From a virus (taxonomy: Duplodnaviria > Caudoviricetes): 64,000 nucleotides of DNA. The stretch covers positions 1 to 64,000 of IMG/VR virus record IMGVR_UViG_3300021561_000002; one strand, written 5' to 3'. Every line of letters starts with the position of its first letter. Position 1 is the first letter of the stretch. Positions 10,330-27,901 of this stretch are shown one piece after another. A model generated the notes under the pieces. The model was not told the DNA's origin and did no database searches. It worked only from the letters and a program-made list of their open reading frames with translations. The position numbers and the translations under genes are program-made.

Positions 10330-10336
10330 AGGCATC

Positions 10337-10615: not shown

Positions 10616-10847
10616 CCCCATCGAAGTTCCTCTGTCCTCCCCGTCTGACCTCGCCAACGAGTTCAAGTATCTGACCGAGGACCAGAAGATAGTCAAAATC
10701 ATGGAGATGATGAAGAACATCTATTTCGGCGAGTTGGTCATCAAGAAGCACAAGGGAAAGATTGCCGCTTTCGACTTCAAGGGCCAGGTCTTGTTCCGGC
10801 TCGAAGAGTTCGACAAGGCCAAGGCGGCGAAGGCGGCGAAACTGTGA
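10599..10847 (+). CDS. Small protein, possibly DUF2292/YezD-like
   Basis: IYFGELVIKKHKGKI resembles the FGxVxIxxHxG pattern of DUF2292 (recalled, not searched). Confidence 0.45.
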   Translation: MPQGSNPIEVPLSSPSDLANEFKYLTEDQKIVKIMEMMKNIYFGELVIKKHKGKIAAFDFKGQVLFRLEEFDKAKAAKAAKL

Positions 10848-13800
10848 ACGATGCTCCCATGAGTTCCCAATTTGCCGGAGACCCCAGGGCTCAGTACCGT
10901 CTCCGCATGACAAAGAAGGTCGGCAACCGTATCGAGGAAGTGGACGTTCAGAAACCCGATGCGGCGGCCGAAGAGGATATGATTCTTGCCGGGCTCGAAG
11001 GATTCCAGGGCGGCGGTACGGGCTTCGCTCGGTTCCTTGCCCAAGCCGCAAAACGCTCCTCGAATCCGAGCTTCGGAGTGACCGGCGGATACATCGACGA
11101 GAATGGCGTCCCTCACACCGGCTCGGATGCCGTGCGCCAGCAGTCGGGTTCGACCGGCTTCGCCGATTTCATGCAACGTCAAGCCCTGAACCCCGATGGG
11201 AACAACGAGGAAGACCGTAGCGCCCCGGCGCATGGGTTCGGAGTCAGCGAAGGGGTGGACCCCACACGTGGTCCAGAGCGTCGTCGTGAACCGGCGAATG
11301 ATGGAGGAATGGCTCTCATGGGAGCCACTAATCGAGAACTTTATCCTCACGAGCCCGAGGAGTTGAACCGCAACCCGTTCGGCAAAGGTCAGTCGAGTGA
11401 TTCGTGCGGGGCGACGGCTTCGATGGGCAAAGAGGAAGTCATCAAGAAGCCTCTCCCCGAGCAGGTCCGTGGTGAAGGCGAAGGCACGGACCTCGTGAGC
11501 CGTTCGGGCCGTCGTCGTAGGATGGCGGCCGTCGATAGGAACGGGGCGTCAATCACCGACGGAGACAGGGTGAAGACCCCCGGTGGAGAAGTCGGGACGG
11601 TTGATTTCATCGACTACTCGACCTACCGGATTTACGTCACCCTCGACAATGGTTACGAGGGAGACTTTTCCTCGGGCGAACTTGAGAAAACCGCCGGGCG
11701 GAGAATGGCGGATGGCCCTCTCCCCAACTGGCAGTCCGAGCCCATCGACGACACGGATGTCCGTGAGCGAAACCGCCTCCCTGTCGTCGAGGACCCTTCC
11801 GGGCGTGACGTTCCGGGCAGGGAAGAAGAGAAGGCAACGCAGATTCCCCCACAGAAGTTCGACGACGAAGGCTCGTGGCCGACGCCCGGATTCTCCCAGG
11901 ACTACCCTCAAGAAAAGGTGAGGAGCACCGAAATCATGGCGCATCAGGCGACACGTGTTCGCCTTGCCGACGGGCGTGTTCTCGTCGGCAGAATCGCCTC
12001 GAACGACGGGTACATGGTGGAGTTCGTGGGGCGTATGGCCGGAGACAGGTCCGATGCCCGCTACTCCTTCCCGGCCCATGAGATTCGTGAGAAGGGTCCG
12101 TTCCGGGTTCGCCAGTCAGAACGTCGTGCGCCCGAGACCTTGGACGACGCCTATGCGGCTTTCAGGAGGGTAGGTAGCCGTGTCCCTTTCGGCCGTAAGG
12201 CGGTGAATAACGCAATGGCATCGAAGCGAACCGCCAAGACCATCGGCGCAATCCCGACGACGAAAGCCGGTGTGCCAATCAATCTTTACATCGAGGGCTT
12301 TGATGACGGTGAAGGGTTCTCCTACACCGAAGATGAGAGCAAGGCGATGGACATGGCGGGTTACGAAGGCGACTTCGAGATGATGCACCCCGAAGGAGTC
12401 ATCATGAAAGTCTCTTCGGCCGGGAGAGGAGAAACCGTCCGTACCGCTCGCGTGGTGGCCCCTGATGCTCCGATGCTCTGCGATAAATGCAATCAGGAAA
12501 TCCCTGTCAGCGGCGGTCTTATCGGCTTTTCCGTTACAGATGGGTATTACGCAAATGCTGACCTGTGCGAATCATGCGCGAACGCCGTGGCGAAAGAGCA
12601 GGAACAGAAGTACGAAATGTTTCTCAACGAGAATGATGGCGATGAGGAATATGCGAAGCGGGATTACGAACGCTGGCTCGAAGATGACGAGAGCGGCTCC
12701 CCGTTTACGGCCGAACGGTATCGTTATCGTTCGGCTTCTAGCGACGTGATTCCAGGGGGTCTCTCGGCCGGGCGCGGCGATGAAGAGTTCGACCCTCAAT
12801 CTCTCCTTGATGGCAAGATGGTTGAGAGGGAACACACCGATGACAGGGACGTTGCGAAGGAAATCGCCAAGGACCACCTGACCGAGGACCCGGCATACTA
12901 CGAGAAACTCAAGATGGTGGAATCCAGGACGGCCGGTGAAGGGACGCCTGGGTTCGACGTGGATGATGAGGTCATCGAAATCCTGCGTGCCGTCAAGAAC
13001 CAGAATGACGGCGGCATTGGAAGCCACACGTTGAGCGAGTTGTCCGACATGGGACTCATGAATTTTTCTCCCGGCGTGGAGTCAACTCTTGAGCCCGGTC
13101 GTTGGTTCCTTACGGAAAAGGGAGAGGCCATGTTGAAAGCGGCGTCAGTCAGAACGGCGGACGGATTCTCAGCGAGCGATGACGAGGGCGACCCGATGGA
13201 CCCCATCGTGCCCGGTCAACGCCGTCAATGCGATAAGTGCGGAGAGACGTATCTTCCGGCCACGCCCGAAGGTGGTCCCGCCGAGCGTGATGACTACTTG
13301 TGCGACAACTGTTACACCGAGAAGATGAAATCAAGGGGGCTGGCGATGGGCTCAAGGATTGCCGGTGCGAGTACCGCTTTCGACGTGACTCTGAACGGCG
13401 AGGTCATCGACACCGTTTATTACGACCAGGGTTCGACCGAAGAGACGGTTCGGCGTGACCTCATCGAACACGACGGGTACGACCCGTCCATCAGCGTCAC
13501 GAAACGTCAAGCCTCCAAGAAAACCGCTGAGGTCGATGTCGATACTCTCCAAAACGAGTTGGAGCCCGGCTTCATCGAGGACATCAAAAGGATGAGAGAA
13601 GAAGGAAAGTCCGATGACTATATTCGGTCGCTCTTTTCGCCTCATGCCGGTCCCGAACTTACGGAAGAGTGGATGGCGAGGGCTTCGTCCAAGCGTGTCG
13701 CCGCTGTCTCCGTCGGGGACCGCGTTCGCTATGCGAGTACCGCTTTCGACGTGACTCTGAACGGCGAGGTCATCGACACCGTTTATTACGACCAGGGTTC

Positions 13801-14269
13801 GACCGAAGAGACGGTTCGGCGTGACCTCATCGAACACGACGGGTACGACCCGTCCATCAGCGTCACGAAACGTCAAGCCTCCAAGCGTGTCGCCGCCGTG
13901 GCGGCTCCCGACCGTAACGCCGGGGAAGACAAGTCCATCGGTGATGGTCAACTGTATGGCGATGACTCGGCCATGCGTGACCAGTTGAAAATCCGTGACA
14001 AGCGCCGCAAGGCCATGAAGGAGCGGTTGACGGCGATGCTTCGCACGGCCGTTCAGTTGGACAGGGCCGGGAAGCACGCCGAGGCCAAGGCCGTTGACCG
14101 GCGAATCGAGGCGATGTACGAGACCTGGAAGCGTGAGGGGAAGGCCATCGAGGGCCTCTCTAGCTTGATGTACCGTAGGTCTCTGTCCCGCATGGCGAGA
14201 GACAACAAGAAGTCCACGTTGTTCTTCCAGAATCAGGCCAAGGCTTCGCAAGACAACCCGTTCCTTTGA
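10844..14269 (+). CDS. Modular acidic polyprotein A (1141 aa); putative internal head/cargo protein
   Basis: Series of small domains (SH3-like, two Zn-binding, DUF5661-like, a duplicated module) separated by linkers such as GRRMA, ASKRTA, ESRTA, ASKKTA, SSKRVA. Confidence 0.8.
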   Translation: MNDAPMSSQFAGDPRAQYRLRMTKKVGNRIEEVDVQKPDAAAEEDMILAGLEGFQGGGTGFARFLAQAAKRSSNPSFGVTGGYIDENGVPHTGSDAVRQQSGSTGFADFMQRQALNPDGNNEEDRSAPAHGFGVSEGVDPTRGPERRREPANDGGMALMGATNRELYPHEPEELNRNPFGKGQSSDSCGATASMGKEEVIKKPLPEQVRGEGEGTDLVSRSGRRRRMAAVDRNGASITDGDRVKTPGGEVGTVDFIDYSTYRIYVTLDNGYEGDFSSGELEKTAGRRMADGPLPNWQSEPIDDTDVRERNRLPVVEDPSGRDVPGREEEKATQIPPQKFDDEGSWPTPGFSQDYPQEKVRSTEIMAHQATRVRLADGRVLVGRIASNDGYMVEFVGRMAGDRSDARYSFPAHEIREKGPFRVRQSERRAPETLDDAYAAFRRVGSRVPFGRKAVNNAMASKRTAKTIGAIPTTKAGVPINLYIEGFDDGEGFSYTEDESKAMDMAGYEGDFEMMHPEGVIMKVSSAGRGETVRTARVVAPDAPMLCDKCNQEIPVSGGLIGFSVTDGYYANADLCESCANAVAKEQEQKYEMFLNENDGDEEYAKRDYERWLEDDESGSPFTAERYRYRSASSDVIPGGLSAGRGDEEFDPQSLLDGKMVEREHTDDRDVAKEIAKDHLTEDPAYYEKLKMVESRTAGEGTPGFDVDDEVIEILRAVKNQNDGGIGSHTLSELSDMGLMNFSPGVESTLEPGRWFLTEKGEAMLKAASVRTADGFSASDDEGDPMDPIVPGQRRQCDKCGETYLPATPEGGPAERDDYLCDNCYTEKMKSRGLAMGSRIAGASTAFDVTLNGEVIDTVYYDQGSTEETVRRDLIEHDGYDPSISVTKRQASKKTAEVDVDTLQNELEPGFIEDIKRMREEGKSDDYIRSLFSPHAGPELTEEWMARASSKRVAAVSVGDRVRYASTAFDVTLNGEVIDTVYYDQGSTEETVRRDLIEHDGYDPSISVTKRQASKRVAAVAAPDRNAGEDKSIGDGQLYGDDSAMRDQLKIRDKRRKAMKERLTAMLRTAVQLDRAGKHAEAKAVDRRIEAMYETWKREGKAIEGLSSLMYRRSLSRMARDNKKSTLFFQNQAKASQDNPFL
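13366..13885 (+). repeat. 154-bp exact direct repeat (13366-13519 and 13732-13885)
   Basis: Identical sequence encoding ASTAFDVTLNGEVIDTVYYDQGSTEETVRRDLIEHDGYDPSISVTKRQASK; offset 366 bp, in frame. Confidence 0.95.
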
Positions 14270-14276
14270 GGGGCAC

Positions 14277-14990
14277 ATGCTGACCATTTCGGCTTCGATT
14301 TCCTACGACTCTAGGGGAAACATCCTGCACAAGGGCGACAGGGTGCTGGCACCGATACCGGTGTCGGATACCTTTTCGGAGTTTTCCGTCGGTACGGATA
14401 TGACGGATACTCTTGTGGAAGCTGAAATATACGATATTCTAGTGGGCAACAGGATTGCTGTCGTCCATCCCGAAGACAAGACCCTCGTGGTCATGGACTC
14501 GGGGAGCACGACCAAGGTGGACAAGCTGGTTCAGGTCGTGGAGCATTTCGAGGGCGACCAAATCGGTCGGATGAACGAGGAGTCGGAGTTGGGCCGAGCG
14601 AGGCTTATGTCTCCGAAGGACGAACTCCTGAACGAAGTGGCTGACATCCTTCTCGACCTGATGAAGTCGGTCAAGAAGGTGGTCATGGCGACGGCCTACA
14701 ACATCAAAAAGGTGGAGAGCGTCGTTACCGCCAGGACCGGTCGTGTCATGGAGGGCAAGGTCGAAGCTGAAATTCACGTTGCCGACATGATGATGAAAAG
14801 GAAGTCCAAGCTGTACGTGGAGTTGTTGGTGCGAGAAGGGACTGTGCAGACACCATTCGGGTTCAGCACCTCGGACGGAAAGCAGTTTCCGTTCAACGAG
14901 GCTGGTATCCGAAAACATTTGAATATCCCGCTGGAACCGTACATCGGAAAGAAACCATCGGGCGCTGTCATGTCGTACAGAAAAGATTAA
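14277..14990 (+). CDS. Hypothetical virion-associated protein with an N-terminal SH3-like motif
   Basis: YDSRGNILHKGDRV resembles the DxxGxxIxxGDxV modules of the neighbouring polyproteins. Confidence 0.65.
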   Translation: MLTISASISYDSRGNILHKGDRVLAPIPVSDTFSEFSVGTDMTDTLVEAEIYDILVGNRIAVVHPEDKTLVVMDSGSTTKVDKLVQVVEHFEGDQIGRMNEESELGRARLMSPKDELLNEVADILLDLMKSVKKVVMATAYNIKKVESVVTARTGRVMEGKVEAEIHVADMMMKRKSKLYVELLVREGTVQTPFGFSTSDGKQFPFNEAGIRKHLNIPLEPYIGKKPSGAVMSYRKD

Positions 14991-15002
14991 AGGAGCCGAA
15001 AG

Positions 15003-16370
15003 ATGCCGCCTGTCAATGCGCCTCTCACCGCCGACGCCACGATGCAGGTCCCTGCGACCTCCGTGGATTTCCAGGGCCAGAAGGGTAACTCCTTCGAGCT
15101 TGGCCTTGGCGTCAACATCCAGCCGTGTAACAACATCGTTGGCATGAACACGACCTCCGTGGTCGTCGCTTCTCAGGCCAACGTCGCCGTAGCCAGCGCC
15201 CTCGAAAACGGGGACGTGGTTGACGGCGTGACTCTCGCCACCGGCAACCTCGTGTTGCTCAAGGCGCAGACCGACCCCAAAGAGAACGGTGTGTACGTGG
15301 TGCCCGCCGCTGGTGCCGCCTCCCGCTCCGCTTCCTTCGGGGCCTATGGCCTGTCGTACCACCGGACGCCCGTTCGTGTCTTGGGCGGCACGGACGCCGG
15401 GAAGATTTTCCTTCAGGCGACCCGTGGTGCCATCGTGGTCGGGACTACGCTCGTGACGTTCGAGGAGTTCGTCGGGCAGTTGGAGCACCAAGCCGACATC
15501 CTCGATGCCACCAAGGAAGCCCTGAACCGTCAGAACGTGAAGCCGTGGCACTCGATTTCCCGCCCTCGCTGGACGGATGGCATCCTGAGTTTCGACAATC
15601 AGGTCATGGAGGGTTTCTACCCGAAGGACAACGTGCGCTTGGCGACCACCGCCGCTCACGGCCTGTCCGGCCTTGCGGCCATCGACGGTGTGACCCCCGT
15701 GGCTGGCGACCGCATCCTGGTCAAGAACGGCACGACCTCTCCGTCGCTCTATACCGCCTGCCGTTGCTCGTCCGTCGGTGCGAACATCGTTCTCGCCAGC
15801 GGCCTTGAGAACGGCGACACGCTCGATTCCCTCACGCTGGCGACCGGCGACCGTGTTTTGGTCAAGGACCAGACCGACCCCATTGAGAACGGCATCTATG
15901 TCGTTCAGGCTTCGGGTGCGGCCGTCCGTGCGACCGACATGGACGTTGCGAGCGAGGTCATCCTCGGGAAGGGCGTGACCGTCACGGAAGGGACGAACGC
16001 CGGCAAGTATTACGCCGTGTCCGCCGTCCCTCATACGATGGGCGTCAACCCGCTGACCTTTGCGCTGTCTTCGGCCGCCTTGCTTGCGGCCGTCGCCAAC
16101 GGCATCTACGTGGCCGATTCCGGCTCGTGGTCCCGCTCGGCCGACGCCAACACTTCGGCGGAAGTCCGCAACGGGATGACGGTGTTCGTGACGGAGGGCG
16201 CGGCGAACGGGGAGAAGTCGTTCTTCATCAGCACGGCGGACCCCTTCTATCTCAACGTGACTCCTCTCGCCTTCAACAACCTCACGGACGTTCTCACCGA
16301 GAACATCGTGAACCAGCCGACCGATACGGTCAAGAATGCGTCGGACGCTGGAATGTACCGGTCGCTGTAA
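15003..16370 (+). CDS. Head fibre/decoration-like protein with three copies of a DGVTLxxGDRVLVKxQ...ENGIYVV domain
   Basis: Three recognisable copies of a domain common in phage fibre/decoration proteins; AAGGAG RBS. Confidence 0.7.
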   Translation: MPPVNAPLTADATMQVPATSVDFQGQKGNSFELGLGVNIQPCNNIVGMNTTSVVVASQANVAVASALENGDVVDGVTLATGNLVLLKAQTDPKENGVYVVPAAGAASRSASFGAYGLSYHRTPVRVLGGTDAGKIFLQATRGAIVVGTTLVTFEEFVGQLEHQADILDATKEALNRQNVKPWHSISRPRWTDGILSFDNQVMEGFYPKDNVRLATTAAHGLSGLAAIDGVTPVAGDRILVKNGTTSPSLYTACRCSSVGANIVLASGLENGDTLDSLTLATGDRVLVKDQTDPIENGIYVVQASGAAVRATDMDVASEVILGKGVTVTEGTNAGKYYAVSAVPHTMGVNPLTFALSSAALLAAVANGIYVADSGSWSRSADANTSAEVRNGMTVFVTEGAANGEKSFFISTADPFYLNVTPLAFNNLTDVLTENIVNQPTDTVKNASDAGMYRSL

Positions 16371-16398
16371 GACCGGGTTTTTGCAGGGCATCTTCGGC

Positions 16399-16427
16399 GG
16401 GTCCGCTCTCTTCTTGAGGGCGGACCC
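16399..16427 (+). terminator. GC-rich hairpin between the 15003 gene and polyprotein B
   Basis: gggtccgctctc-ttctt-gagggcggaccc, a 12-bp stem with one G-U pair; no clear U tract follows. Confidence 0.4.
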
Positions 16428-16445
16428 CCTCCTTCGAGGACATCA

Positions 16446-19400
16446 ATGGATAGGGCTACCCGCAGGGCACTCCGTCGGAATACCTACGCTCTCATGGCCG
16501 AGCGAGTTCGTAGGGAGGCTCAGGTCAGCGTGACCGAAGAATGGGCACCGGATGGTACGGTGAAACGCACTACCAAGATGGACAACTCGATGCCCGGAGA
16601 GGCGGAGTTGCTCCTGAAGATGTTGTCGTTGGCTCCGCCCGAGGCGGCGGAGGTCGTGAACGATGCGAAGGCCAAAGGCATCTTGCCCGAGGGGAATCCT
16701 GCGCCCGCTCCGACCGAGGAAGTAGTGGCCGAGCAGGGTCCGGCGATGCAGGAGGACGACCAGGCGGACGTGAAGGGTCGAGTCTCGGAAGGAAAGAAGG
16801 ATTTTCGGGCCTCCGGTAAGAGGTCGTTCTATCCCGACGTTTTGATGCACAAGGTTTTCAACGTTGACGCTCCCGTGACGGCCTCAAAACGCACCGCCGA
16901 TGATAGTGGTGTGTTTGCCGAGGGAGACTTAATCCGGGTGACTCGTGGCGGATACGCCGGTTTGACCGGGAAGGTTCTCGGGTATTCCAGAAACGATGCG
17001 TATTCCGTTCAGCTTGATGGAGGCCAGCCTGGCGATGGGAAGGGCGGGCAATGCGAGTTCTACTCTTCGGAGATGGAGAAGACCGCTTCCAAGCGTACCG
17101 CCGAACTCCGAATCAAAACGACCTACGAGGTCGTGACTCCCGAGAGTGCCGAGGCCGGTGACTTCGAGGAGACTGGCTGGCACGACGAAGTGGGCAAAAC
17201 CTTTTCTAGTGTCGAGGAGGCCGCCTCGTTCCTTCGCAACGAAGGGGCCACCGAGTATTCGGACAGCCGACCCGACTTCAACCAGGGCTATCGTGGATGG
17301 TACATCGGACAGCCCGACAATGATTACGAGACCGGGGCCGAGACCACGAAGAACTACCACCTGGAAGGTTTCTCTTCTGATGACGCCAGGGAACTCCACA
17401 AGCTCGTCACGGGTCAGGATACGCCTCCCATCGACCACGGCCAGCAGGAGATGTTTGCGGCGAAGCGGGTTGCGGTAACGAGGGAAGATTTTGTCAATGC
17501 GGCCACCGAACAATACTTGAAAAGTGGCGTCTCCTACGACGAAGCAAGACAGTATGCGGAAGACGATGCTGATTACATCGAGGGCCCGGCGCCAGAATTT
17601 ACCCGATATGTGCATGGCCCCTTCGATAAGGCTTCATCGAAACGCACCGCCTCGTTCCAAGTCGGCGACCGGGTTCGCATTACGCAGTACGAACACGCCG
17701 GTAAAGAAGGTGAACTCGGTTCGACCAACGATTACACGAACAAAGTCTTGGTCATCTTGGACGATGGGACTCGTGTTCGTGTCTGGCCAGGAGACCTTGA
17801 GAAGGTTGGCTCTAGGCGTACCGCCTCGTTCCAGGTAGGCGACAAGGTTCAAACGAAAGACGGGCGTTCCCCGATTTTCAACGTTGTCGAAGAATCCCGT
17901 GAGCGTGGCGACGGGTTTACGGTTTATGACCGCCTCGTTGTCGTCGAGGCTAACGGTCAACGGTACGAGATGAGCGAGAAGGACTTGGTGAAGGTTGCAT
18001 ACAGCCGTTACTCCGGCGACCCGTTTTGGATGAAGGTGAAGTATCCCACGACCTGTAAGCGGTGCGGAAAGTCCGTCCAGCCAGGCGAGGAGGTTTTCCG
18101 GTTCAAGGACGGCTCGATGTATTGCGACGCCCCTGATTGCGGTCAGCGGGAGTCGAACTCTTTCAATGCGTCGGCGCAGGACGAAGCCATGTTCGGCGGA
18201 GGCATGGACGAAGGCATGATGGAGTTCGGGTCGAAGCGCGTGGCCGCTGATTGGGAGTCTCTTCTTCGCAAGCAGAGAGACGCCGAGGGATACGTGGCCG
18301 CAATCAAGGACACCCGTGGCGGGGAAACGTATTGGGGCAAGTCCGGCGAGACGCACAAGGAACTCATCTTCCGGGTTTTCATGGAACAGAGCGACGACAA
18401 AAAAGACGTTCGGAATCTCATCATCGCGTTGGATATGTACGGCATCGGAAGCGGCCCATTCTCGCACATCGAAGCGGGATTCGTTGACCCCGAAGAGGGG
18501 CGTTTTCTATCTCAAGACGAGATGCAGAACCGCATGGGCGGAGGAGGCAAGGGGAGAATCATTACGGAATACCTTCCCTCTTACCAGACCGCCGCGAAGC
18601 GCACGGCGCAGTCCACCCGCGAGTACCTCGAAACCTTCTTCGAGGAGAAACAGCTTCCTCATCAATCGTGGGACATCACGGACCAGAACGGGACCATGCA
18701 CTACATCGACAGCGATGTGGTCATCGAGGCCCTGCTCAACGCTCCACCGCAGGAGCAGGAACAAGCGGCCAACATCATCCGCAAAATCGACTTCATGAAC
18801 GGTGACGTGAACCACTTCCTGAAACATCTTGCGACCGGGCTCGTCATGAACTCCTCGGGAGGTTCCGAGATTTTCGCCATGAGGCGTTCTCTGAAGACCG
18901 CCGGATACTCCGTCCGTAAGGGAACCAAGGCTGAAATCGAGGCCATCTATCCTTCCCTTCAGATGGTGTCGGCCAGCGGGGAAGCGAACTTCAGTAAGCC
19001 CTCTTTCGCATCCATCGAGGACGAAATCTCCATCGGCGACAATGGCTCGGTCACGGTGTTCAAGGGACCGGACCGCTCTGGCGTGACCGGCAAGTGGTGG
19101 GAGTTGGAAGGCGTTCCGGTCGAAGTGTACGACCGCACGGCCTCCAAGAGGCAAGCCGATTTCAAGGGCGGGGAGCGTGTGAAGATAAACAGCGACTTCG
19201 CGGAGTTTCCCTACGGTTTTGTGGAAAGCGTCAATGATGACGGAACCGTGAAAGTCGTTTACGACAACGAGGGAACTTGGGGACATGGAATTGGTCCCGC
19301 GAGAACGTTCTATCTCAATGAGTTGGAAAAGACTTCTTCCAAGCGTAAGGCTGATGACAGCCGTGTTCCTCAAGTCGGCGACACCGTCGGCAAGGTGACG

Positions 19401-19703
19401 AAGGTGGCGACCAAGAAGGAAGAGGGCGCGGTTCAGGCCCCGGTCGAGGTCCACAGCATCGACGACACCAAAATCCAGACGTGGTTCGAGCGCGACCGTC
19501 AGCATGTGGCTCTCGTGGACGCCGAGACCGAACAGAATACCATCATCGAGTGGTGGGACGAGGCCGTGACGGAAGCGGTGGAGGATGGTTTCCTGGACCC
19601 TCGTGACTATCACGGTTCGGCCTACGACTACGCCAAGAGTAATGGCCTCCTCATCGAGATGCCGTATGAACAACCGACGTGGGACGAAGCCTTTAGCCTG
19701 TGA
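16446..19703 (+). CDS. Modular acidic polyprotein B (1085 aa)
   Basis: About 12 modules separated by ASKRTA, AAKRVA, SSKRTA, GSRRTA, GSKRVA, AAKRTA, ASKRQA and SSKRKA linkers. Confidence 0.8.
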   Translation: MDRATRRALRRNTYALMAERVRREAQVSVTEEWAPDGTVKRTTKMDNSMPGEAELLLKMLSLAPPEAAEVVNDAKAKGILPEGNPAPAPTEEVVAEQGPAMQEDDQADVKGRVSEGKKDFRASGKRSFYPDVLMHKVFNVDAPVTASKRTADDSGVFAEGDLIRVTRGGYAGLTGKVLGYSRNDAYSVQLDGGQPGDGKGGQCEFYSSEMEKTASKRTAELRIKTTYEVVTPESAEAGDFEETGWHDEVGKTFSSVEEAASFLRNEGATEYSDSRPDFNQGYRGWYIGQPDNDYETGAETTKNYHLEGFSSDDARELHKLVTGQDTPPIDHGQQEMFAAKRVAVTREDFVNAATEQYLKSGVSYDEARQYAEDDADYIEGPAPEFTRYVHGPFDKASSKRTASFQVGDRVRITQYEHAGKEGELGSTNDYTNKVLVILDDGTRVRVWPGDLEKVGSRRTASFQVGDKVQTKDGRSPIFNVVEESRERGDGFTVYDRLVVVEANGQRYEMSEKDLVKVAYSRYSGDPFWMKVKYPTTCKRCGKSVQPGEEVFRFKDGSMYCDAPDCGQRESNSFNASAQDEAMFGGGMDEGMMEFGSKRVAADWESLLRKQRDAEGYVAAIKDTRGGETYWGKSGETHKELIFRVFMEQSDDKKDVRNLIIALDMYGIGSGPFSHIEAGFVDPEEGRFLSQDEMQNRMGGGGKGRIITEYLPSYQTAAKRTAQSTREYLETFFEEKQLPHQSWDITDQNGTMHYIDSDVVIEALLNAPPQEQEQAANIIRKIDFMNGDVNHFLKHLATGLVMNSSGGSEIFAMRRSLKTAGYSVRKGTKAEIEAIYPSLQMVSASGEANFSKPSFASIEDEISIGDNGSVTVFKGPDRSGVTGKWWELEGVPVEVYDRTASKRQADFKGGERVKINSDFAEFPYGFVESVNDDGTVKVVYDNEGTWGHGIGPARTFYLNELEKTSSKRKADDSRVPQVGDTVGKVTKVATKKEEGAVQAPVEVHSIDDTKIQTWFERDRQHVALVDAETEQNTIIEWWDEAVTEAVEDGFLDPRDYHGSAYDYAKSNGLLIEMPYEQPTWDEAFSL

Positions 19704-19724
19704 TTCCAAAGCCGTAAGGAGAAG

Positions 19725-22700
19725 ATGATGCGTACTCGCAAGACAGCCTTGACCGAGCAGTCCTTCAAGCAATCCCTGGAAGGAAAGGAGTTTATGTCTC
19801 CTTCCTGCGGAGGTCCAGTCCGCATCAATGGAGGGCGTGTCGTCCTCAATGGGTACGAGGACGTGACCGATTCCTGTGATTGGTCGAAGCTCATGGACGA
19901 ATACCAGGCGTGGAATATCGGCGGAGCGTATCAGCGCATGACGGCAAGCGACGCCAGCACGGAGTCTTCCAGGTACATCGCCCATATCGGGGACCGGGTT
20001 CGGTATCAGACCGAGGACGGCTCCGAGGGCGAGGGCATCCTTCAGGACGTTCAACTCGGGATGGACAATGGTTTCCATGACAACTTCTACATCATCAAGA
20101 AGGATGATGGCGAAGAGGCTCGAATCCCAACTTTCAGCCTGCTCATGTTCCAGAAGGTCTCCATGAAGAAAACCTCCGACATCAATCCCGATGATTACAG
20201 CTACGAGACTTACTACGATGAAATCGGAAAGCTCGACAGCGAAGGCCGCGAGGTGCGTTGGCTCAACGTTAACCGAACCGGCCCGAAAGGCTCGCATCAA
20301 GTCGCATCCATTCCCGTTCATGAAGGCCAGACTGACCCGATGAGGCTCATCGAAGACCTGAAGGCCGTGGACCGCATGGGCATGGAAGGCAGGGAATGGT
20401 CCGAGGCGTTCAATCGGGTGTTCGATAAGTACATGGTCCCTGGCATGGACGCCGTAATCTCTGCGAGTGGGATGGGCGAGTTGTATCGTTATTCCTCCGA
20501 GATGAAAAGGACCGCTTTGACCGGCTGGCTTGAAGGGATGACCGAGGACGAAGTCAAGGGGATGCCGGTTCAAGTGGTCTTCGAGGACCCGAGTGGTCGT
20601 GGCCTGAAGAGCGAGGAATATCCGAACTTCCAAGCCGCTCTTTCGGCGGGTCATGATTTCATCCGTCCGAACGATTGGCAGAATGCGATGAAGGGGGTTT
20701 CTTACGAGACCAATGCCACGGTTCTCCGATTCGAGAGCCCGGAAGCGTACCGCATTCTTTCTGCGTCGAAGAGGGTTAGGGTTGCGTGGTCAGGTCCGGT
20801 GAAGGTCGTGACCGACTCCTGCGACTGGTCGAAGCTCATGGACGAGTCTCAGGCGTGGAGCCTCGGCGGGGCGTACAATAAAATGGTCGCCAATAAAAAG
20901 ACGGCTGGCGCTACCGACATGGATGGGCAACCCATCGAGGTCGGAGATAAGGTTCGCGCTCAGTCCCTCTACAACGTTTCCGAAGGAGAGGGCCAGACGC
21001 ACGATGGCGGAACGGGAGTCGTGACGGAAATCAACGAACTCGGTCAAGTTCGCGTGAAGTGGGATGCTGGCTCCGAGGGAACCGGGGCCGACTGGAACGA
21101 GGGGGCCACTTTGTATGTGCGTCCTTCCGTTCAGATTTACGAGCCGTTTACCGGAACGAAGGTTCATGGCTCCATGACCGATGACCAGACTCGCGAGCAG
21201 ATTCTCTCCTTCGTCAAGGACTGCAAGGAGAAGGGGCGTAGCCGTACCGAGTGCATCTCCGACGCCTGTTTGCAGTACCGTGGCATGGACGACGCGGTGT
21301 ACGAGGTCGTGGACGAAGTGTACGGGAAGAACTCGAACGTGTGGGCTTCCAAGAAGACCGCCGCTGACGAGAGTGCCCTGAAGTTCTCCGCGACCGTCGT
21401 CGAGGACACCAACGACCCGAACGGTAGCGAGGGGATGTTCTTCGTCGATGTGAAGTGCACGGGGCCGGATGGCACGGTCGGCGAGTGGAGTGAGTGGTAT
21501 CCCGAAGCCGATGCCAAGAGGTATAGCGGCTTCATCAACCAGAACCCGACGTTCCAATACATGCAGGAACATCGCGGTTCTCCCGAGGCGGACATGATGC
21601 ACGAGGCATGGCAGGATTTCCGGTCCAAGGGTGGTCAACTCTACGCTTCCCGTAAGCCGAAACTCGGAGACCATGTTACCGGCATGAGTATCACCCTGGC
21701 CGGTAAGAACATCCGTGTGGCGGGTGTCCTGCTTCGCAATGAGTACGAGGACATCTACACGGTTCGCACGGCCAACGGGGACTACCCCGTCATCGAGCGT
21801 GACCTGAAGAGCGCCCCGAAGAAGTACGCCTCCATCGCCGACGAAATCCAAGACCTCAAGGGGCGGAAAGAGATGCTTGAGGTCGAGTATGACTCGGCTG
21901 AGACCGACGACCAGAAGGCGGCGTTTACCGCTCGCATCGACGAACTGGACCGGGAAATCAATGCTCTCGAAGCCAAGACCGCGATGACCGACCCGACGTT
22001 CTTCGGCCACGGTTTGAAGTGCGCCGAAATCGAGGGCGGCAACACCCCGACCTTGACTTCTCCTTCGACCGAGGAAATCTCGGACAACGCCGACGTTCCT
22101 CTCTCCATGCGCCCCAAGGGGGAGCCCGGCGAGGGCTCGGAGTACCGAACGAAGATTTCTAGGAGACGCCGCACGGCCGAAGACGCCATCAAGGCCGGAG
22201 ATGACGTGGTGGTTTTTGCCGACGCCGCTCACGAAATCGGTCAGTACGGCGGTAAGGTCGTTGAGGTCAAGCCCAACGGCTATGCGATGGTCGAGAGCTA
22301 TAAATTCCCAGGAGACCCGGAGGAAGTAGGGCTTGCCTGGGTTGAGAAAATCAGCCCCGAAGAGGCCGCTGATTGGGGCAAGGTCGGCTCGAAGCGAATC
22401 GCCGGACATAGGAGACGCCGCACGGCCGAAGACGCCATCAAGGCCGGAGATGACGTGGTGGTTTTTGCCGACGCCGCTCACGAAATCGGTCAGTACGGCG
22501 GTAAGGTCGTTGAGGTCAAGCCCAACGGCTATGCGATGGTCGAGAGCTATAAATTCCCAGGAGACCCGGAGGAAGTAGGGCTTGCCTGGGTTGAGAAAAT
22601 CAGCCCCGAAGAGGCCGCTGATTGGGGCAAGGTCGGCTCGAAGCGAATCGCCGGACAAACCATCTGCCGCAAATGCGGGGCCGTGTTTGTTCCGACCACC

Positions 22701-23378
22701 GACGACCCCGTTGAAGAGGCCGAGGACCTGGGATGGGAAATCGGGCAGATAGGCGGATACTTCACGTTCGAGAGGGAAATCGGGCAGATAGGCGGATACG
22801 TCACGTTCGAGAATAGCCTGTGCCCCGATTGCCGTAAACGCCGTAAGTCCGGCTCCGTTCGTTCCGCCGACAACGGTGCGGCCCCCACGATAGGCGGCGC
22901 TCCCGAAGGTCTCGATGACGTTGAGGGCGAAAAGAAAACGGCCGAGGTTGAACTCGATGAGAACATCTTCGAGAGCGAGGATGATGCTCCTCACCGTTTC
23001 CGTGGCGAGGAGAAGGACCAGTCAGTCATGCGTTCATCTTCGGACGGGGCCAAGGGCTACCAGTCAAGCGGGCCGTTCGTTGCCCCTCCCTCGGCGTTGC
23101 CGGGCGCGTATGCCTCTTGCCCGACCGGCATCCCGAAGGACGTGAAAGATGAAGTCATCGACGAATACGGCAAGGACAGCCCCAAGACCTACATGACCTT
23201 GAACAAAATCAAGGACGACATGAAGGAGGGCAAGACTGCCTCGTTCATGGGGGACCAGATGGACGAAATCTTCAAGGCCAAGGTCGAACAGTACGTGGCC
23301 GAGGGGATGAGTGAAGAAGAGGCCAAGAAGAAGGCCGAGGATGCGGTTCTGTCCGAATACTCCTTTTGGGCGGACTAA
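19725..23378 (+). CDS. Modular acidic polyprotein C (1217 aa)
   Basis: About 17 modules separated by RKTA, MKRTA, NKKTA, ASKKTA, RRRTA, GSKRIA and EKKTA linkers; contains exact internal duplications. Confidence 0.8.
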   Translation: MMRTRKTALTEQSFKQSLEGKEFMSPSCGGPVRINGGRVVLNGYEDVTDSCDWSKLMDEYQAWNIGGAYQRMTASDASTESSRYIAHIGDRVRYQTEDGSEGEGILQDVQLGMDNGFHDNFYIIKKDDGEEARIPTFSLLMFQKVSMKKTSDINPDDYSYETYYDEIGKLDSEGREVRWLNVNRTGPKGSHQVASIPVHEGQTDPMRLIEDLKAVDRMGMEGREWSEAFNRVFDKYMVPGMDAVISASGMGELYRYSSEMKRTALTGWLEGMTEDEVKGMPVQVVFEDPSGRGLKSEEYPNFQAALSAGHDFIRPNDWQNAMKGVSYETNATVLRFESPEAYRILSASKRVRVAWSGPVKVVTDSCDWSKLMDESQAWSLGGAYNKMVANKKTAGATDMDGQPIEVGDKVRAQSLYNVSEGEGQTHDGGTGVVTEINELGQVRVKWDAGSEGTGADWNEGATLYVRPSVQIYEPFTGTKVHGSMTDDQTREQILSFVKDCKEKGRSRTECISDACLQYRGMDDAVYEVVDEVYGKNSNVWASKKTAADESALKFSATVVEDTNDPNGSEGMFFVDVKCTGPDGTVGEWSEWYPEADAKRYSGFINQNPTFQYMQEHRGSPEADMMHEAWQDFRSKGGQLYASRKPKLGDHVTGMSITLAGKNIRVAGVLLRNEYEDIYTVRTANGDYPVIERDLKSAPKKYASIADEIQDLKGRKEMLEVEYDSAETDDQKAAFTARIDELDREINALEAKTAMTDPTFFGHGLKCAEIEGGNTPTLTSPSTEEISDNADVPLSMRPKGEPGEGSEYRTKISRRRRTAEDAIKAGDDVVVFADAAHEIGQYGGKVVEVKPNGYAMVESYKFPGDPEEVGLAWVEKISPEEAADWGKVGSKRIAGHRRRRTAEDAIKAGDDVVVFADAAHEIGQYGGKVVEVKPNGYAMVESYKFPGDPEEVGLAWVEKISPEEAADWGKVGSKRIAGQTICRKCGAVFVPTTDDPVEEAEDLGWEIGQIGGYFTFEREIGQIGGYVTFENSLCPDCRKRRKSGSVRSADNGAAPTIGGAPEGLDDVEGEKKTAEVELDENIFESEDDAPHRFRGEEKDQSVMRSSSDGAKGYQSSGPFVAPPSALPGAYASCPTGIPKDVKDEVIDEYGKDSPKTYMTLNKIKDDMKEGKTASFMGDQMDEIFKAKVEQYVAEGMSEEEAKKKAEDAVLSEYSFWAD
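22160..22657 (+). repeat. 249-bp exact tandem duplication (22160-22408 and 22409-22657)
   Basis: Two identical 83-codon units encoding RRRRTAEDAIKAGDDVVV...GSKRIAG. Confidence 0.95.
22735..22812 (+). repeat. 39-bp tandem duplication with one mismatch
   Basis: gggaaatcgggcagataggcggatac[t/g]tcacgttcgaga x2; encodes EIGQIGGY[F/V]TFE. Confidence 0.9.
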
Positions 23379-24985
23379 TGAACAAGACCGCTACCATCTT
23401 CGATAAGAGTGGGCTCATTGCCCTTCAGCTTGGAATGACCGTTGAGGTTCAGACCAATCCGTACTGGTACGGAGAAATCGTGGACATCGAAGGTCGTGAG
23501 GGACAAGAGAAGGTCGAGGTCGAAGGTCTCCATGAACCGAAGAGGGAATGGGTCTCGGTTAAGGACGTAGTGGCGTGGAAGGGCAAAACTGAAGGCTCGA
23601 AGAGGACTGCCATGTTCAACAAAGGCGACCGCATCAAGTTCGTTGGCGACTTCCCGGCTGGCTCGGTCGGCGAGAAGTATCGCAATGAAGGGTCGGAGGG
23701 CGTCGTTCAGGGAGAGGGATACGACCCCGATTATTTCGACCTTGAGGGCAACGGTCCTACGGGTAGCGATGGTCAATACTCCGTCCTCATGGATGACGGG
23801 TATGACCTCATGGTGCCGGAAAAGAACTTGGAGAAGGTGGCCTCGATGAATAAGACATCCGCTATCGACAGTAATGGTCAGGAACTCAAAGTCGGCGATA
23901 TGGTCCGGGTGTTAGGCTTCGCAGGAGAGACAGTAGAGGCCGAAGTCACGAGCGTCACCGAAAGGCAAATCCAGGTCTCTTGGGTTGAGGACGGGATGAA
24001 GATGGCGACGAACATCTGGACCGATGGGCGTAGCAAAATTGAAAAGGTTGCCGCTTGGCGGTCGGGCAATCACCTTCGCCTCGCCTCCAAGAAGACCGCA
24101 TGGAACCCCGAAGGAACCGATGCCACTCCGAATGCCGAAAAAATCATGCGGGCTTTCGATGATGTCGAAAGAGAAACCGGTGCTCAGTCCGGCACGGCCG
24201 TCCGTGAGGAGCCGTGGGCCTCGAAGTTCCTGGCCCACTTTGTTGCTGACGGTTGCAAACCGGCGAGCGACGACGACCTGAAGGCCCTCGAAGATTACAA
24301 CTATCACTCGGCCATCTACATCCTCACGATGAACGGACTCGTGACCGGGAACTACTACACGAAGTCCACTTATGGCTCGAAGAAGACCGCCAGCGAACTC
24401 ACCGACGCCATCGGGGAGCCCATCCTGGTCGGCGACAAAGTTCTCGATACGGAGACGGACGAAGAGGGCGATGTCATCGAGGTTTCAGGCGTCGAGGCTT
24501 TCATCGAATGGTTGTCTTCCGGTCGTCAGGAGTGGACGACGGGCGACATGCTCGTCAAGGCCATGAAGAAGGAAGCCGAATACTTCGAGGACGAAATCTT
24601 CGATGAGGACACGACCGACGACGAGGGCGCTTTCAACCCGAACTCTTCTTCCGCCGTGAGTCATTCGTTCGCCGTCGGAGACATCCTTCATGGTTCCTTT
24701 GGGTATGACGAGACCCACAACTACTTCGCAGAGGTCACGGGCCTCGTGGGGTCCTCTACGTTACTCGTTCGCCCAATCTCTTACGAGCAGGTCGGGGAGA
24801 TGGAAGACAGATTTTCAAGCAGGGTTCGTCCGATTCCCGGAAAATACATTGGCCCCGAGGTTCGTACGAGAGTTAACCGTAGCGGGAACTACGCTAAGGT
24901 TCCGGTTCCGAACATTAGCGAAATGATGTCGGCCAGCAAGTGCAATCCGAGCGACACGTTCTACGCCTCGTCTGGTTTTCATTGA
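23378..24985 (+). CDS. Modular acidic polyprotein D (535 aa)
   Basis: ATG 23378 overlaps the stop of polyprotein C (TAATG); modules separated by NKTA, GSKRTA, EKVA, ASKKTA and GSKKTA. Confidence 0.8.
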   Translation: MNKTATIFDKSGLIALQLGMTVEVQTNPYWYGEIVDIEGREGQEKVEVEGLHEPKREWVSVKDVVAWKGKTEGSKRTAMFNKGDRIKFVGDFPAGSVGEKYRNEGSEGVVQGEGYDPDYFDLEGNGPTGSDGQYSVLMDDGYDLMVPEKNLEKVASMNKTSAIDSNGQELKVGDMVRVLGFAGETVEAEVTSVTERQIQVSWVEDGMKMATNIWTDGRSKIEKVAAWRSGNHLRLASKKTAWNPEGTDATPNAEKIMRAFDDVERETGAQSGTAVREEPWASKFLAHFVADGCKPASDDDLKALEDYNYHSAIYILTMNGLVTGNYYTKSTYGSKKTASELTDAIGEPILVGDKVLDTETDEEGDVIEVSGVEAFIEWLSSGRQEWTTGDMLVKAMKKEAEYFEDEIFDEDTTDDEGAFNPNSSSAVSHSFAVGDILHGSFGYDETHNYFAEVTGLVGSSTLLVRPISYEQVGEMEDRFSSRVRPIPGKYIGPEVRTRVNRSGNYAKVPVPNISEMMSASKCNPSDTFYASSGFH

Positions 24986-25010
24986 CGAGAATTGATGGTA
25001 TAGGTACAGT
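24982..25010 (+). promoter_or_regulatory. Putative sigma70-type promoter upstream of the portal gene
   Basis: TTGACG-17 bp-TACAGT. Confidence 0.45.
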
Positions 25011-25027
25011 AGAACGAAGGGGAAACA

Positions 25028-27901
25028 ATGAGCGACCGCACATACCGACCTGTAAACCAGCGCCAGATTCTCGGCTTCGATGGTAAACCTCTTACCTCGA
25101 AGCCGAAGTCCGTTATCGTTCCTGGCACCAGGAGGTCGGCCGCTGATGTGGCGCTCACGTCGCCGGAGATTCGTAACCCTCTACTCAACATCGTCAACTT
25201 CTTCCTCCCGTACAACTACAAGGTACTGAATCAATGGATTCGGTACTACGACCGCTTTCATCCGATGGTCGGTAACTGTATCGACCTGCACGGGTACTTC
25301 CCCATTTCCAAGTTCGACTTGAAGTTGGGGAAGCAGGACGAAGAGGTTCTCAACGTGTACGAGGATTGTTCGGAGGAAATAGAACTATTCCAGAGATTCC
25401 TCGAAATGAGCCGCGAGTTTGAACTCATTGGGGAGGAGTATCCTTACCTGCATTGGAGCGATGAACTCAACTTCTTCGACTCCATGACCTTGATGAACCC
25501 CGACTTCATCAACGTCAAGATGCACCCGTTGGCTTTAGGCATGAAGCCGACTATCGAACTTGAGCCGGACGAACTCCTGAAGAGCCTCATCCAGTCCAAT
25601 GAGCCCGAGGACATCGAAATCAAGCAGTCCTTGGACCCCGTTGTGATTTCGGCTGTGATGATGGGCCAGAACATCCGCATCGACCAGTTCAACACCGAGC
25701 AGATTGCCCGTAAGGCTTCTCCTTACGAGCCCCGTGGCACCTCCATCGTCCTCCGCATCCTGAAGGACCTGTTGTACGAGGACAAGCTCCGTGAGGCGCA
25801 GTATTCGGTGGCCGACGGCATGATTACGCCGAAGGTCATTTACAAACTTGGCGACCCGAACAACGGCTACATGCCTACCACCGAGGACCTGACAGACTTC
25901 CGAGCCCTGCTCCAAGCTCAGGCCCATGACCCGCTTGCGGCAATCGTGACTCACTACGGTCTGTCCCTTGAGTACGTGGGGGCATACGGGAAGATTCTTC
26001 CCATCGTGCCGGAGTTCCAGTTCATCGAGGACCGCATCCTGACTGGCCTATACACGAACAAGGCCCTGACGCATGGTGAGGGCCCGTGTGCGAGTTCCGA
26101 CACAGAAACACTTACTCGTCGAGGATTCAAATTCTACGATGAAATCACGGATGAGGATGAGATTGCGACGTACAACTCCGTGACCGGAAAATTGGAATAC
26201 CACAAACCGACAGGTCGAGTTAAGTTCAATGTGGACAGCGAACTCATCCTGTTCGAGAATAGATGTCTTGACCATTTTGTTACCCCGAATCATAAGGTTT
26301 GGGCAAGGAAGCCCAACGGTAAGTTTGAGAAGATGAGGGCTGATGAGGTTTCGGAAAAATACGAGTTTATGACAACCCCGGAAAATGGTTGGGATGGAGC
26401 CTCGCCTGAATACGTCCAGGTAGGGGACCGAAAAATTCCGACGAATGATTACATGAGGTTCGTCGGTCTTTATCTGTCGGAAGGCTCGATGGAATTTTCT
26501 AGGACGGCGGAATTTGTTAAGACGGGAAATAAATCATGTACCCGCCCAATCGAAATCCGAATTACTCAAACCGAGGTTCACAAGTCCGGCCTTAATCCGT
26601 GGTACGGACGTGTCAAAGAGGCCGTCTTGAAAGCGTTCCCCGACGCCATCGAAAGACAGGCAAAAAGACAAAATGGAAACTACGGGACTTTCAGGATTAA
26701 GGGAGGAGACATAGCGGCTCATTTCCTTTTGAATTACGGAGAGGGGAGCGCCGTTAAGACCGTTCCTGCTTGGGTTAAGAGTTTTGGGATGGATGCTTTA
26801 AAGGCTCTGATTGACGGGTTTCATATCGGAGACGGCTCGGATTTCTCGAACTCGGATAGCGGATTTGAGCTTAACACCGTATCGAAGGTTCTAGCCGATG
26901 ACTTGCAAGAAATCTGTTTGAAGTGCGGCTATTACTCAAAAAATTCAGTTCGGACAAGAACCGGAAGAAAGAAACTGTACAGATTGAAAATCCATCCCTT
27001 TAACATTCGGAGGGATTATGGATTTACTCCAATGTTGTCGAAGGGCGACATCAAGCGAATCCCTTACAAGGGGTGGGTCTATTGTTTTGAGGTTCCCAAT
27101 CGTCTTTTCGTCATGCGACGAAATGGAAAGATTTGCATAACTCATAACACCTACGCCAACGCCACCGTGGCGATGGAGGCTCTCCAAGGTCGGTACATGG
27201 CGAAGCGGGAGAAGTTAGAGGACTTTGCCATCCGAAAGATTTTCACTCCGGTCGCTCTCGCCAACGAGTTCTACGAACCTCTCACCGAGGCGCAGTCCTC
27301 CCACGGCGTCCGTCCTTCGCGCAAGGACCGCAAGCTGAATATACCGACCTTCGAGTGGAAGCAGAAATTGAGGCTCGTGGACGACATTCAACGGAAGCAG
27401 ATGGTCATCAACCTCCGCAACCGTCCCATCCCCGAGGTTTCCCTGCGGAAGATTTACGACGAGCTTGGTATCGACTTCGACACCGAAATGCAGGCGTTGA
27501 AGGAAGAGGCCAAGATTATGAAGCAGATGAAGCAGGACTACGGCGTGGAGAACCCGTTGTTGAATCCCGGTTCTCGTCCTGGCGGTCAGATGCCTGGTTT
27601 GCCGGGCGAGAGCGGAACGACGAGACCCGTTCAGCCTCCAAGGGACATCTCGATGGTCAAGGCCCCAGGCGGCGGAGGAAGCAAGTCCTCTACCCAGGAG
27701 CCAGGTGGCCCGTCCAAGACCAAGGAACCCGGCGGCGAACTGAAGGGGGCAAGCGCATCATGGAACTCCGAATTACAACAGGCTCGCAAAGAAAAGGCCA
27801 AACTTCTCGTGGCGTTGTCGGACCCGCCGAAATTCTTCTCGGAGGACGGGCGGCTGAAGGACGTTCACGCTCTCGAAGCGGAAGCGGCATTGAGGTCGTA
27901 A
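25028..27901 (+). CDS. Portal protein interrupted by an intein
   Basis: First gene of the head module (before MuF, protease and capsid); LLYEDKLREAQ..VAD..ITP...KLGD and ILP...F..IEDRILTGL resemble portals of large myoviruses; about 603 aa after intein removal. Confidence 0.8.
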   Translation: MSDRTYRPVNQRQILGFDGKPLTSKPKSVIVPGTRRSAADVALTSPEIRNPLLNIVNFFLPYNYKVLNQWIRYYDRFHPMVGNCIDLHGYFPISKFDLKLGKQDEEVLNVYEDCSEEIELFQRFLEMSREFELIGEEYPYLHWSDELNFFDSMTLMNPDFINVKMHPLALGMKPTIELEPDELLKSLIQSNEPEDIEIKQSLDPVVISAVMMGQNIRIDQFNTEQIARKASPYEPRGTSIVLRILKDLLYEDKLREAQYSVADGMITPKVIYKLGDPNNGYMPTTEDLTDFRALLQAQAHDPLAAIVTHYGLSLEYVGAYGKILPIVPEFQFIEDRILTGLYTNKALTHGEGPCASSDTETLTRRGFKFYDEITDEDEIATYNSVTGKLEYHKPTGRVKFNVDSELILFENRCLDHFVTPNHKVWARKPNGKFEKMRADEVSEKYEFMTTPENGWDGASPEYVQVGDRKIPTNDYMRFVGLYLSEGSMEFSRTAEFVKTGNKSCTRPIEIRITQTEVHKSGLNPWYGRVKEAVLKAFPDAIERQAKRQNGNYGTFRIKGGDIAAHFLLNYGEGSAVKTVPAWVKSFGMDALKALIDGFHIGDGSDFSNSDSGFELNTVSKVLADDLQEICLKCGYYSKNSVRTRTGRKKLYRLKIHPFNIRRDYGFTPMLSKGDIKRIPYKGWVYCFEVPNRLFVMRRNGKICITHNTYANATVAMEALQGRYMAKREKLEDFAIRKIFTPVALANEFYEPLTEAQSSHGVRPSRKDRKLNIPTFEWKQKLRLVDDIQRKQMVINLRNRPIPEVSLRKIYDELGIDFDTEMQALKEEAKIMKQMKQDYGVENPLLNPGSRPGGQMPGLPGESGTTRPVQPPRDISMVKAPGGGGSKSSTQEPGGPSKTKEPGGELKGASASWNSELQQARKEKAKLLVALSDPPKFFSEDGRLKDVHALEAEAALRS
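26087..27148 (+). mobile_element. Intein (354 aa) with a LAGLIDADG-type homing endonuclease domain
   Basis: Starts at Cys (GEGP|CASSDTETLTRRG); block B FVTPNHKVW; endonuclease motifs FVGLYLSEGS and ALIDGFHIGDGS; block F/G WVYCFEVP...ICITHN|T with Thr at +1; DNA visibly more AT-rich than the flanks. Confidence 0.92.

Follow-up and report, generated by a model that had tools for sequence, protein, structure and literature searches.

Layout of ORF B and its linker peptide

The window analyzed here comprises the 64,000 nucleotides at the start of an IMG/VR virus record of 74.5 kb (IMGVR_UViG_3300021561_000002, rated approximately 50% complete) from an uncultured phage. Our subject is an open reading frame (ORF) of 1,085 amino acids at positions 16446 to 19703 on the plus strand (ORF B; protein P0001), preceded by a GAGGA Shine-Dalgarno-like site 7 to 11 nucleotides 5' of its ATG. 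Nine copies of a short basic linker peptide divide ORF B into 10 units, namely, a leader (M0, amino acids 1 to 147) and M1 to M9. At least four of the units are, as judged from sequence comparison, versions of small accessory proteins that are separate genes in other phages and on plasmids. We consider it fairly likely that the phage is a myovirus with four adjacent polyproteins of the "beads on a string" type, ORF B being one of them.

The linker follows the consensus [AGST][SA]-[KR]-[KR]-[TVQK]-A, with copies at amino acids 148, 216, 340, 399, 457, 597, 718, 901, and 966. The first (TAS-KRTA-D) is encoded at 16887 to 16898 and the remaining eight at 17091 to 17102, 17463 to 17474, 17640 to 17651, 17814 to 17825, 18234 to 18245, 18597 to 18608, 19146 to 19157, and 19341 to 19352, all on the plus strand. 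The core pattern [KR][KR][TVQK]A occurs 27 times in the 3,982 amino acids of the four adjacent ORFs versus 5 times in the 16,410 amino acids of all other nonoverlapping ORFs of the window, corresponding to densities of 6.8 versus 0.30 per 1,000 amino acids (odds ratio = 22, Fisher P value = 4.7e-15). The codons used in the linkers vary freely (AAG/AAA, CGC/CGT/CGG/AGG, ACC/ACG/ACT, and GCC/GCT/GCG), and selection therefore acts on the peptide and not on the DNA. A role of the linker DNA as a recombination signal was rejected for the window because synonymous positions vary.

The leader M0 (16446 to 16886, plus strand, as are all units below) is conserved over approximately 115 amino acids (41 to 56% identity in alignment A4) and always stands at residue 1 of its relatives, which are proteins of 117 to 853 amino acids. 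It is a candidate capsid-targeting or carrier domain, and approximately 10 units of 50 to 180 amino acids, predicted to fold independently, follow it. M1 (16899 to 17090) is a KOW/SH3-like small barrel that scores 24.5 to 28.5 bits against Pfam KOW (PF00467; cutoff, 22.3 bits). Other KOW-like units are M4 (17652 to 17813), which at 17.3 bits lies under that cutoff, the first half of M5 (17826 to 17969), and M8 (19158 to 19340). When ORF B was scanned against Pfam as a whole and unit by unit, KOW was the only domain matched; enzymatic, LPD, peptidase (including zincin), and other domains typical of polyvalent proteins were not found in either scan, and an NCBIfam scan gave only subthreshold matches.

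The remaining units comprise M2 (17103 to 17462; amino acids 220 to 339), a member of the TTYEVVTPESAE.GD family; M3 (17475 to 17639; amino acids 344 to 398), which is short and acidic; a zinc module (17970 to 18233; amino acids 509 to 596) with the pattern CxxC...CxxxxC and a GDP.W motif, fused to the KOW-like half of M5 with no linker between them; M6 (18246 to 18596; amino acids 601 to 717); M7a (18609 to 18860; amino acids 722 to 805), a member of PHROG 6004; M7b (18861 to 19145; amino acids 806 to 900); the short M9a (19353 to 19454; amino acids 970 to 1003); and M9b (19455 to 19700; amino acids 1004 to 1085), of the TWFERDR...EWWDE.V.EAVEDGFLDP family. A preliminary description of this DNA, made from its letters and translations, had singled out four modules, and its boundaries agree with the units that the linkers define: 17103 to 17474 corresponds to amino acids 220 to 343, 18609 to 18902 to amino acids 722 to 819, and 19443 to 19703 to amino acids 1000 to 1085, while 18000 to 18150 falls inside amino acids 509 to 596. 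Every peptide string that it quoted is present in the translation of 16446 to 19703.

Stand-alone relatives of the units

An exhaustive phmmer search with the whole of ORF B against 1.84 billion cluster representatives (E value of ≤1e-3) matched 1,287 proteins, just 4 of them at E values of <1e-30; no match covered the whole ORF, and thus no full-length equivalent was found among these representatives. The phmmer listing covered 150 of the 1,287 matches, and the per-module counts given below rest on 206 retrieved proteins that were re-mapped onto ORF B. For single units, E values reached 1e-22, well beyond chance. All four modules that had been proposed to resemble complete, independent small ORFs match complete stand-alone proteins of 64 to 130 amino acids, and the alignments span 80 to 91% of the small protein, with a median N-terminal overhang of 3 to 7 residues in M2, M7a, and M9b. 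Four alignments (A1, A2, A3, and A5) run end to end, and in those of M2, M7a, and M9b the methionine of the small protein lies no more than a few positions from where the linker ends. A linker is crossed by just nine matched stretches, at least five of which come from related polyproteins or from proteins with neighboring units in common. In this module-by-module comparison, the matches as a whole followed neither of the patterns that the preliminary description had named as speaking against its idea, namely, matches confined to large polyproteins and matches extending across linkers.

Stand-alone forms are most numerous for M9b, where 68 of the 119 matches listed for amino acids 1004 to 1070 have no more than 130 amino acids, at 50 to 74% identity. 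For M7a, this applies to 26 of the 60 listed matches, with 91% of the small protein aligned and an overhang of three residues at each end; M7a is 43 to 58% identical to solo proteins of 78 to 117 amino acids. Its match to the PHROG 6004 profile is full length (E value = 2.3e-10; profile positions 6 to 84 of 88, unit residues 5 to 79). M2 (amino acids 220 to 324) has 22 listed matches, 8 of ≤130 amino acids, whose alignments begin at query residues 219 to 223 with a median overhang of 3 residues, and its stand-alone homologues have 101 to 135 amino acids; an Atlas feature search with M2 scored 0.76, under the useful range. The zinc module (amino acids 509 to 586) has two listed matches, both stand-alone (P0179, 71 amino acids, and P0110, 100 amino acids; 42 to 47% identity), with a median N-terminal overhang of 12.5 residues. 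Its PHROG matches are weak, and a word-index search gave no candidate for it, whereas the exhaustive phmmer search gave these two. M9a precedes M9b in several other proteins too, and M7b adjoins M7a in some linkerless proteins (P0141 and P0202) but stands apart from it in related polyproteins.

AlphaFold models built from the alignments are confident and compact both for M7a (predicted local distance difference test [pLDDT] score, 92.5) and for M9b (pLDDT, 88.5), the latter with three strands and two helices. Fold searches found no solved relative for either domain: the best values for M7a (Foldseek E value, 0.76; VIA Z score, 5.7, to the Zuotin helical bundle) lie under the noise level for helical models, and those for M9b were a Foldseek E value of 0.19 and a VIA Z score of 3.9. 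Two candidate relatives of M9b were rejected, namely, AcrF1 as a fold relative (template modeling score, 0.39 to 0.43; Z score, 3.1; within noise) and the NCBIfam PA4570-family (E value, 0.009; 16 bits versus a cutoff of 100).

The preliminary description had also regarded the modules as early-type phage genes. For cultured phages, gene context agrees with this, the solo genes lying in early or replication-type regions; the families are not restricted to phages, however, and two of the modules are common on plasmids. M7a is represented by gp35 of coliphage FtMidnight (91 amino acids), directly after the DNA primase gene and near MazG and deoxycytidine monophosphate deaminase genes, and by gp98 of mycobacteriophage BirdsNest (88 amino acids), within an extended series of small genes that includes an HNH gene and a DNA-binding gene. 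In these cultured phages, PHROG 6004 members are separate genes of 88 to 91 amino acids, whereas M7a is embedded between linkers in a protein of 1,085 amino acids. M2 corresponds to GP063 of Pseudomonas phage vB_Pae-SS2019XI (103 amino acids), in a run of small genes between those for a nucleoside triphosphate pyrophosphohydrolase and a primase; on metagenomic contigs, solo M2 genes neighbor Phage_TreK, DUF3310, and resolvase genes.

ORF B matched 43 plasmid records, 31 of them typed as conjugative. Solo M7a genes are present on approximately 40 plasmids of Bacillus thuringiensis, Bacillus cereus, and Bacillus licheniformis; in pHT77, the gene (WP_002134110, 87 amino acids) belongs to a codirectional array of approximately 25 small hypothetical genes. 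M9b occurs as a 73-amino-acid gene in a small-ORF array of a 669-kb Deinococcus wulumuqiensis plasmid (L009, CP031163), on Rhizobium and Piscinibacter plasmids, and on a phage contig between a portal gene and a Cro-like gene; it also forms the N terminus of two RadC/JAB-domain proteins. The stand-alone zinc protein P0179 is encoded two genes upstream of a RadC gene. In CP031163, tblastn found three M9b-matching places, and the family is thus multicopy there. Plasmids make no capsids, and the solo homologues that they carry therefore argue that the modules act on the host and not in head assembly.

Homology and unit boundaries thus support the preliminary description; the direction of transfer that it assumed, capture of small genes into a polyprotein, is favored by parsimony only, since solo forms greatly outnumber embedded ones and have a much wider distribution. 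The opposite course, in which the modules first existed within polyproteins and were later released as stand-alone genes, draws on an M7a domain tree in which 3 of 58 branches are supported, embedded copies cluster together, and no rooting is possible. We regard it as highly improbable, because stand-alone forms dominate (as in the M9b matches listed), because their range takes in phages of Actinobacteria, Pseudomonas, and Escherichia coli as well as plasmids of Bacillus, Deinococcus, and Rhizobium, and because linker-type polyproteins are few among the listed relatives (the four matches at E values of <1e-30).

Related phages and the proposed fate of the polyproteins

The three sister polyproteins of ORF B are also encoded on the plus strand: ORF A (10844 to 14269; 1,141 amino acids, seven linker motifs), ORF C (19725 to 23378; 1,217 amino acids, eight motifs), and a 539-amino-acid ORF (23366 to 24985; three motifs). 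The four ORFs are codirectional with, and directly upstream of, genes for the portal (25028 to 27901, plus strand; PHROG E value, 1e-56), a MuF-like protein, a head-maturation protease fused to a scaffold-like tail (30522 to 33089, plus strand; 855 amino acids), and the major head protein (33630 to 34604, plus strand). A promoter and terminator scan of 9500 to 28000 found sites no more frequently than in shuffled sequence. Exact repeats of the linker context are present in ORF A at amino acids 887 and 1009 (PSISVTKRQASK; window positions 13502 to 13900) and in ORF C at amino acids 815 and 898 (RRRRTAEDAIKAGD; window positions 22167 to 22430), suggesting recent duplication of whole units including their linkers.

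The gene order is the same in two metagenomic relatives, L016 (portal 72% identical) and L014 (with a 37% identical homologue of the 455-amino-acid immunoglobulin-like [Ig-like] protein encoded next to ORF B). Their B-like ORFs (1,097 and 853 amino acids, respectively), each followed by a C-like ORF of 1,410 amino acids, have M0 as their leader (42% identical in alignment A4) at the N terminus and have only some units in common with ORF B, in a different order, with M7a last, after M7b-M8. M2 is present in one of the two, and neither contains M3, M6, M9b, or the zinc module. Units have also moved between ORFs, since residues 2 to 78 of a 453-amino-acid ORF of L016 match residues 461 to 536 of ORF A, and residues 595 to 701 of the C-like ORF of L014 match the 539-amino-acid ORF. 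By these comparisons, the module rack is evolutionarily fluid: leader and linker are kept, while modules are swapped, reordered, and moved between ORFs. Among cultured viruses, the closest portal proteins belong to Bacillus phage G (33% identity), virus Rctr197k, and actinobacteriophages of 135 to 165 kb; the linker motif was not found in gp7 of phage G, and a 2,175-amino-acid ORF upstream of the Rctr197k portal gene has only four.

In both relatives, a variant linker, A-M-K-[KR]-K-A, connects the units, and a methionine precedes the basic pair in 11 of 13 linkers of the B homologues (L016 909 to 4202 and L014 1817 to 4378), where the window has serine. One database protein (P0070) starts exactly at the linker methionine of A-M-K-K-K-A, possibly as a truncated gene call, and ORF C itself begins with M-M-R-T-RKTA. 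These features would suit a cytoplasmic polyprotein or fused gene array that is resolved by another protease or by internal translation starts and has no link to the virion. Internal starts at the relatives' linker methionines were nevertheless rejected, because a Shine-Dalgarno-like site stands upstream of none of the eight methionine linkers of the closest B homologue and because the window linkers have serine; in addition, the stand-alone homologues do not start with MKKKA, and the gene position argues for coexpression with the head genes. We therefore consider a purely cytoplasmic fate very unlikely.

The reading that we prefer, and to which we attach a somewhat better than even chance, is that ORF B encodes a capsid-loaded cargo polyprotein that the head protease cuts at the linkers; cutting and packaging, like the direction of capture and the functions of the modules, are inferred from the sequence. 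It draws on the fixed peptide at domain boundaries (a variant in the relatives), the shared leader, the position in the head block, and basic-x-Ala sites in the scaffold-like tail of the protease ORF. The polyprotein would be made together with the head proteins and enter the procapsid via its leader, the prohead protease encoded at 30522 to 33089 would then cut it at the linkers, and some 10 freed small proteins would exit with the DNA at infection. Traveling with the DNA, they would reach the new host ahead of all phage gene expression. The phage thus probably preloads these small proteins into its capsid.

The candidate enzyme for the linkers combines an N-terminal protease domain of approximately 260 amino acids with a tail of approximately 600 amino acids that is acidic, lysine rich, of low complexity, and scaffold-like. 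The same fusion is found in a relative (L021; 932 amino acids, 57% identity over residues 1 to 630), and the basic-x-Ala sites of the tail are at positions common to both. Such sites bear on the possibility that ORF B is instead packaged and delivered uncut, as one long multidomain chain like the N4 virion RNA polymerase, with the basic motif as a flexible and perhaps DNA-binding spacer. A Lys/Arg-rich linker would suit contact with packaged DNA, and phage polyvalent proteins of 2 to 15 domains exist, some of them delivered unprocessed (PMC5512222). A spacer, however, needs no fixed five-residue pattern ending in alanine, whereas here the pattern is kept as peptide at 27 sites and, as a variant, in the relatives; the same type of site recurs in the scaffold-like part of the protease protein, and the Pfam domains typical of polyvalent proteins, including the zincin peptidase, were not found in ORF B. 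Delivery as an uncut chain therefore seems unlikely to us.

The location within the head gene block would also fit head-core or scaffold material, with the four ORFs being cut up and mostly expelled before DNA packaging and the modules having no role in the next host. In T4, cutting reduces the core proteins gp22, gp67, and gp68 to numerous fragments, which exit the head (PMC9026906), and the modules of ORF B differ among close relatives, as low-constraint parts would. Against this, the modules are well-conserved folded domains, M9b retaining its 50 to 74% identity to proteins of plasmids and unrelated phages, and their homologues lie at a distance from any capsid genes as well as on elements that make no capsid. 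We hold the head-core alternative to be quite unlikely.

Several observations weigh against cutting and loading as proposed. The sister polyproteins (ORF A, ORF C, and the 539-amino-acid ORF) lack the M0 leader. No relative was found for M3 in PHROG, Pfam, or the re-mapped phmmer matches, nor for M6 in these and an IMG/VR scan; relatives of M7b are found solely inside larger proteins, and the IMG/VR scan gave none. A function is known for none of the modules. The protease domain matches only two PHROG families (E values, 2e-7 and 3e-13) and, by sequence, nothing in Pfam, NCBIfam, or PDB, and its specificity can thus not be argued from relatives. The linker (basic-basic-x-Ala) is unlike the known prohead-protease rules, L/I-x-E in T4 and S/A/G-x-E in phiKZ, the rule of phiKZ-like phages ending in Glu; to our knowledge, no documented prohead-protease rule matches it. 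Finally, the phage is known solely from a metagenomic record.

Among known systems, the T4 internal proteins (IPI to IPIII) and Alt are directed to the head by an N-terminal peptide, cut by gp21 (which cleaves at L/I-x-E), and then ejected; one of them, IPI, acts as an inhibitor of a type IV restriction enzyme (PMC9026906). Being small, nonessential, fast evolving, made with the head, brought into the prohead core, freed by the prohead protease, and ejected, these T4 proteins resemble what we propose for the units of ORF B. They differ in being separate genes, each with a targeting peptide of 10 to 19 amino acids and one L/I-x-E cut, whereas ORF B strings approximately 10 units behind one leader of approximately 115 amino acids, with basic K/R-K/R-x-A sites and no short targeting sequence of the T4 type. 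We found no sequence similarity between ORF B and the T4 internal proteins. Two reports on phiKZ-like giant phages describe many head-internal proteins that are cut by a prohead protease (gp175-type), some of them at several sites, and delivered to the cell (PMC5694885, PMC7411985). Unlike ORF B, the inner-body and ejection proteins of such phages are not known to consist of small modules strung together that have stand-alone counterparts, and tblastn against 50,697 phage records found no similarity between phiKZ-like inner-body proteins and ORF B.

Polyvalent proteins, as described by Iyer, Burroughs, Anand, de Souza, and Aravind in 2017, join many unrelated domains, each known in solo form too, in mosaic fashion, are encoded beside virion genes in their phage versions, and are predicted to be injected; their domains are mostly enzymatic or belong to LPD families, and an embedded zincin-like peptidase is their presumed processing enzyme (PMC5512222). 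ORF B is similar in that it has 10 units, four of them with solo homologues, that relatives combine differently, and in that its gene lies among virion genes; moreover, the RadC/JAB domain to which M9b is fused elsewhere is a hallmark of the polyvalent proteins of conjugative elements (PMC5512222). It differs in having no effector, LPD, or zincin-like domains and in being built from units of 50 to 120 amino acids with a regular, conserved linker. We found no description of such phage polyproteins in the literature.

A further reading, which we advance as a tentative possibility, is that the cuttable polyproteins of this lineage form an exchangeable rack through which ordinary accessory genes from the early or leading regions of phages and plasmids become premade, capsid-delivered proteins, with the M2, M7a, M9b, and zinc families being host-takeover or antidefense proteins whose value lies in their presence at DNA entry. 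If so, the polyproteins would be a catalogue for discovering such proteins. Small orphan genes, most of them without a known role, fill phage early regions and the small-gene arrays of plasmids, and their occurrence on a cuttable linker in a head block would link three entry-time places, namely, virion cargo, early genes, and first-entering plasmid genes. Families to test for counterdefense or takeover are PHROG 6004, the TWFERDR...EWWDE family, the TTYEVVTPES family, and the GDP.W zinc ribbon. Should the linker prove to be a protease site, it would represent a new type of head-protease rule (basic-basic-x-Ala), and its design could be a natural way to load several foreign proteins into a capsid.

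Other features of the head and tail block

Between ORFs A and B lies the gene for the Ig-like decoration-type protein (15003 to 16370), and repeated Ig-like domains of the head-decoration type were found both there and at 38288 to 43105 (PHROG 2647 and 24595; E values down to 1e-46). Genes for the tail sheath (45848 to 47617) and a baseplate wedge protein (55418 to 56881) are encoded farther downstream. The MuF-like ORF, which comes after the portal gene (within 27355 to 29517, plus strand), matches Pfam Phage_Mu_F at an E value of 5.5e-6 and 27.5 bits, just under the cutoff of 29.6 bits; its listed start overlaps the portal ORF, and the true start is therefore probably downstream of 27901. 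In polyvalent proteins, effector domains that are injected are commonly carried by MuF.

The portal protein carries an insert of approximately 300 amino acids (approximately residues 400 to 702) with a weak LAGLIDADG_3 match at amino acids 592 to 655 (E value, 4.8e-4). The portal of L016, 72% identical, lacks this insert, its residues 355 to 475 aligning to residues 703 to 820 of the window portal, and the insert looks, from these alignments, like an intein with a homing endonuclease inside.

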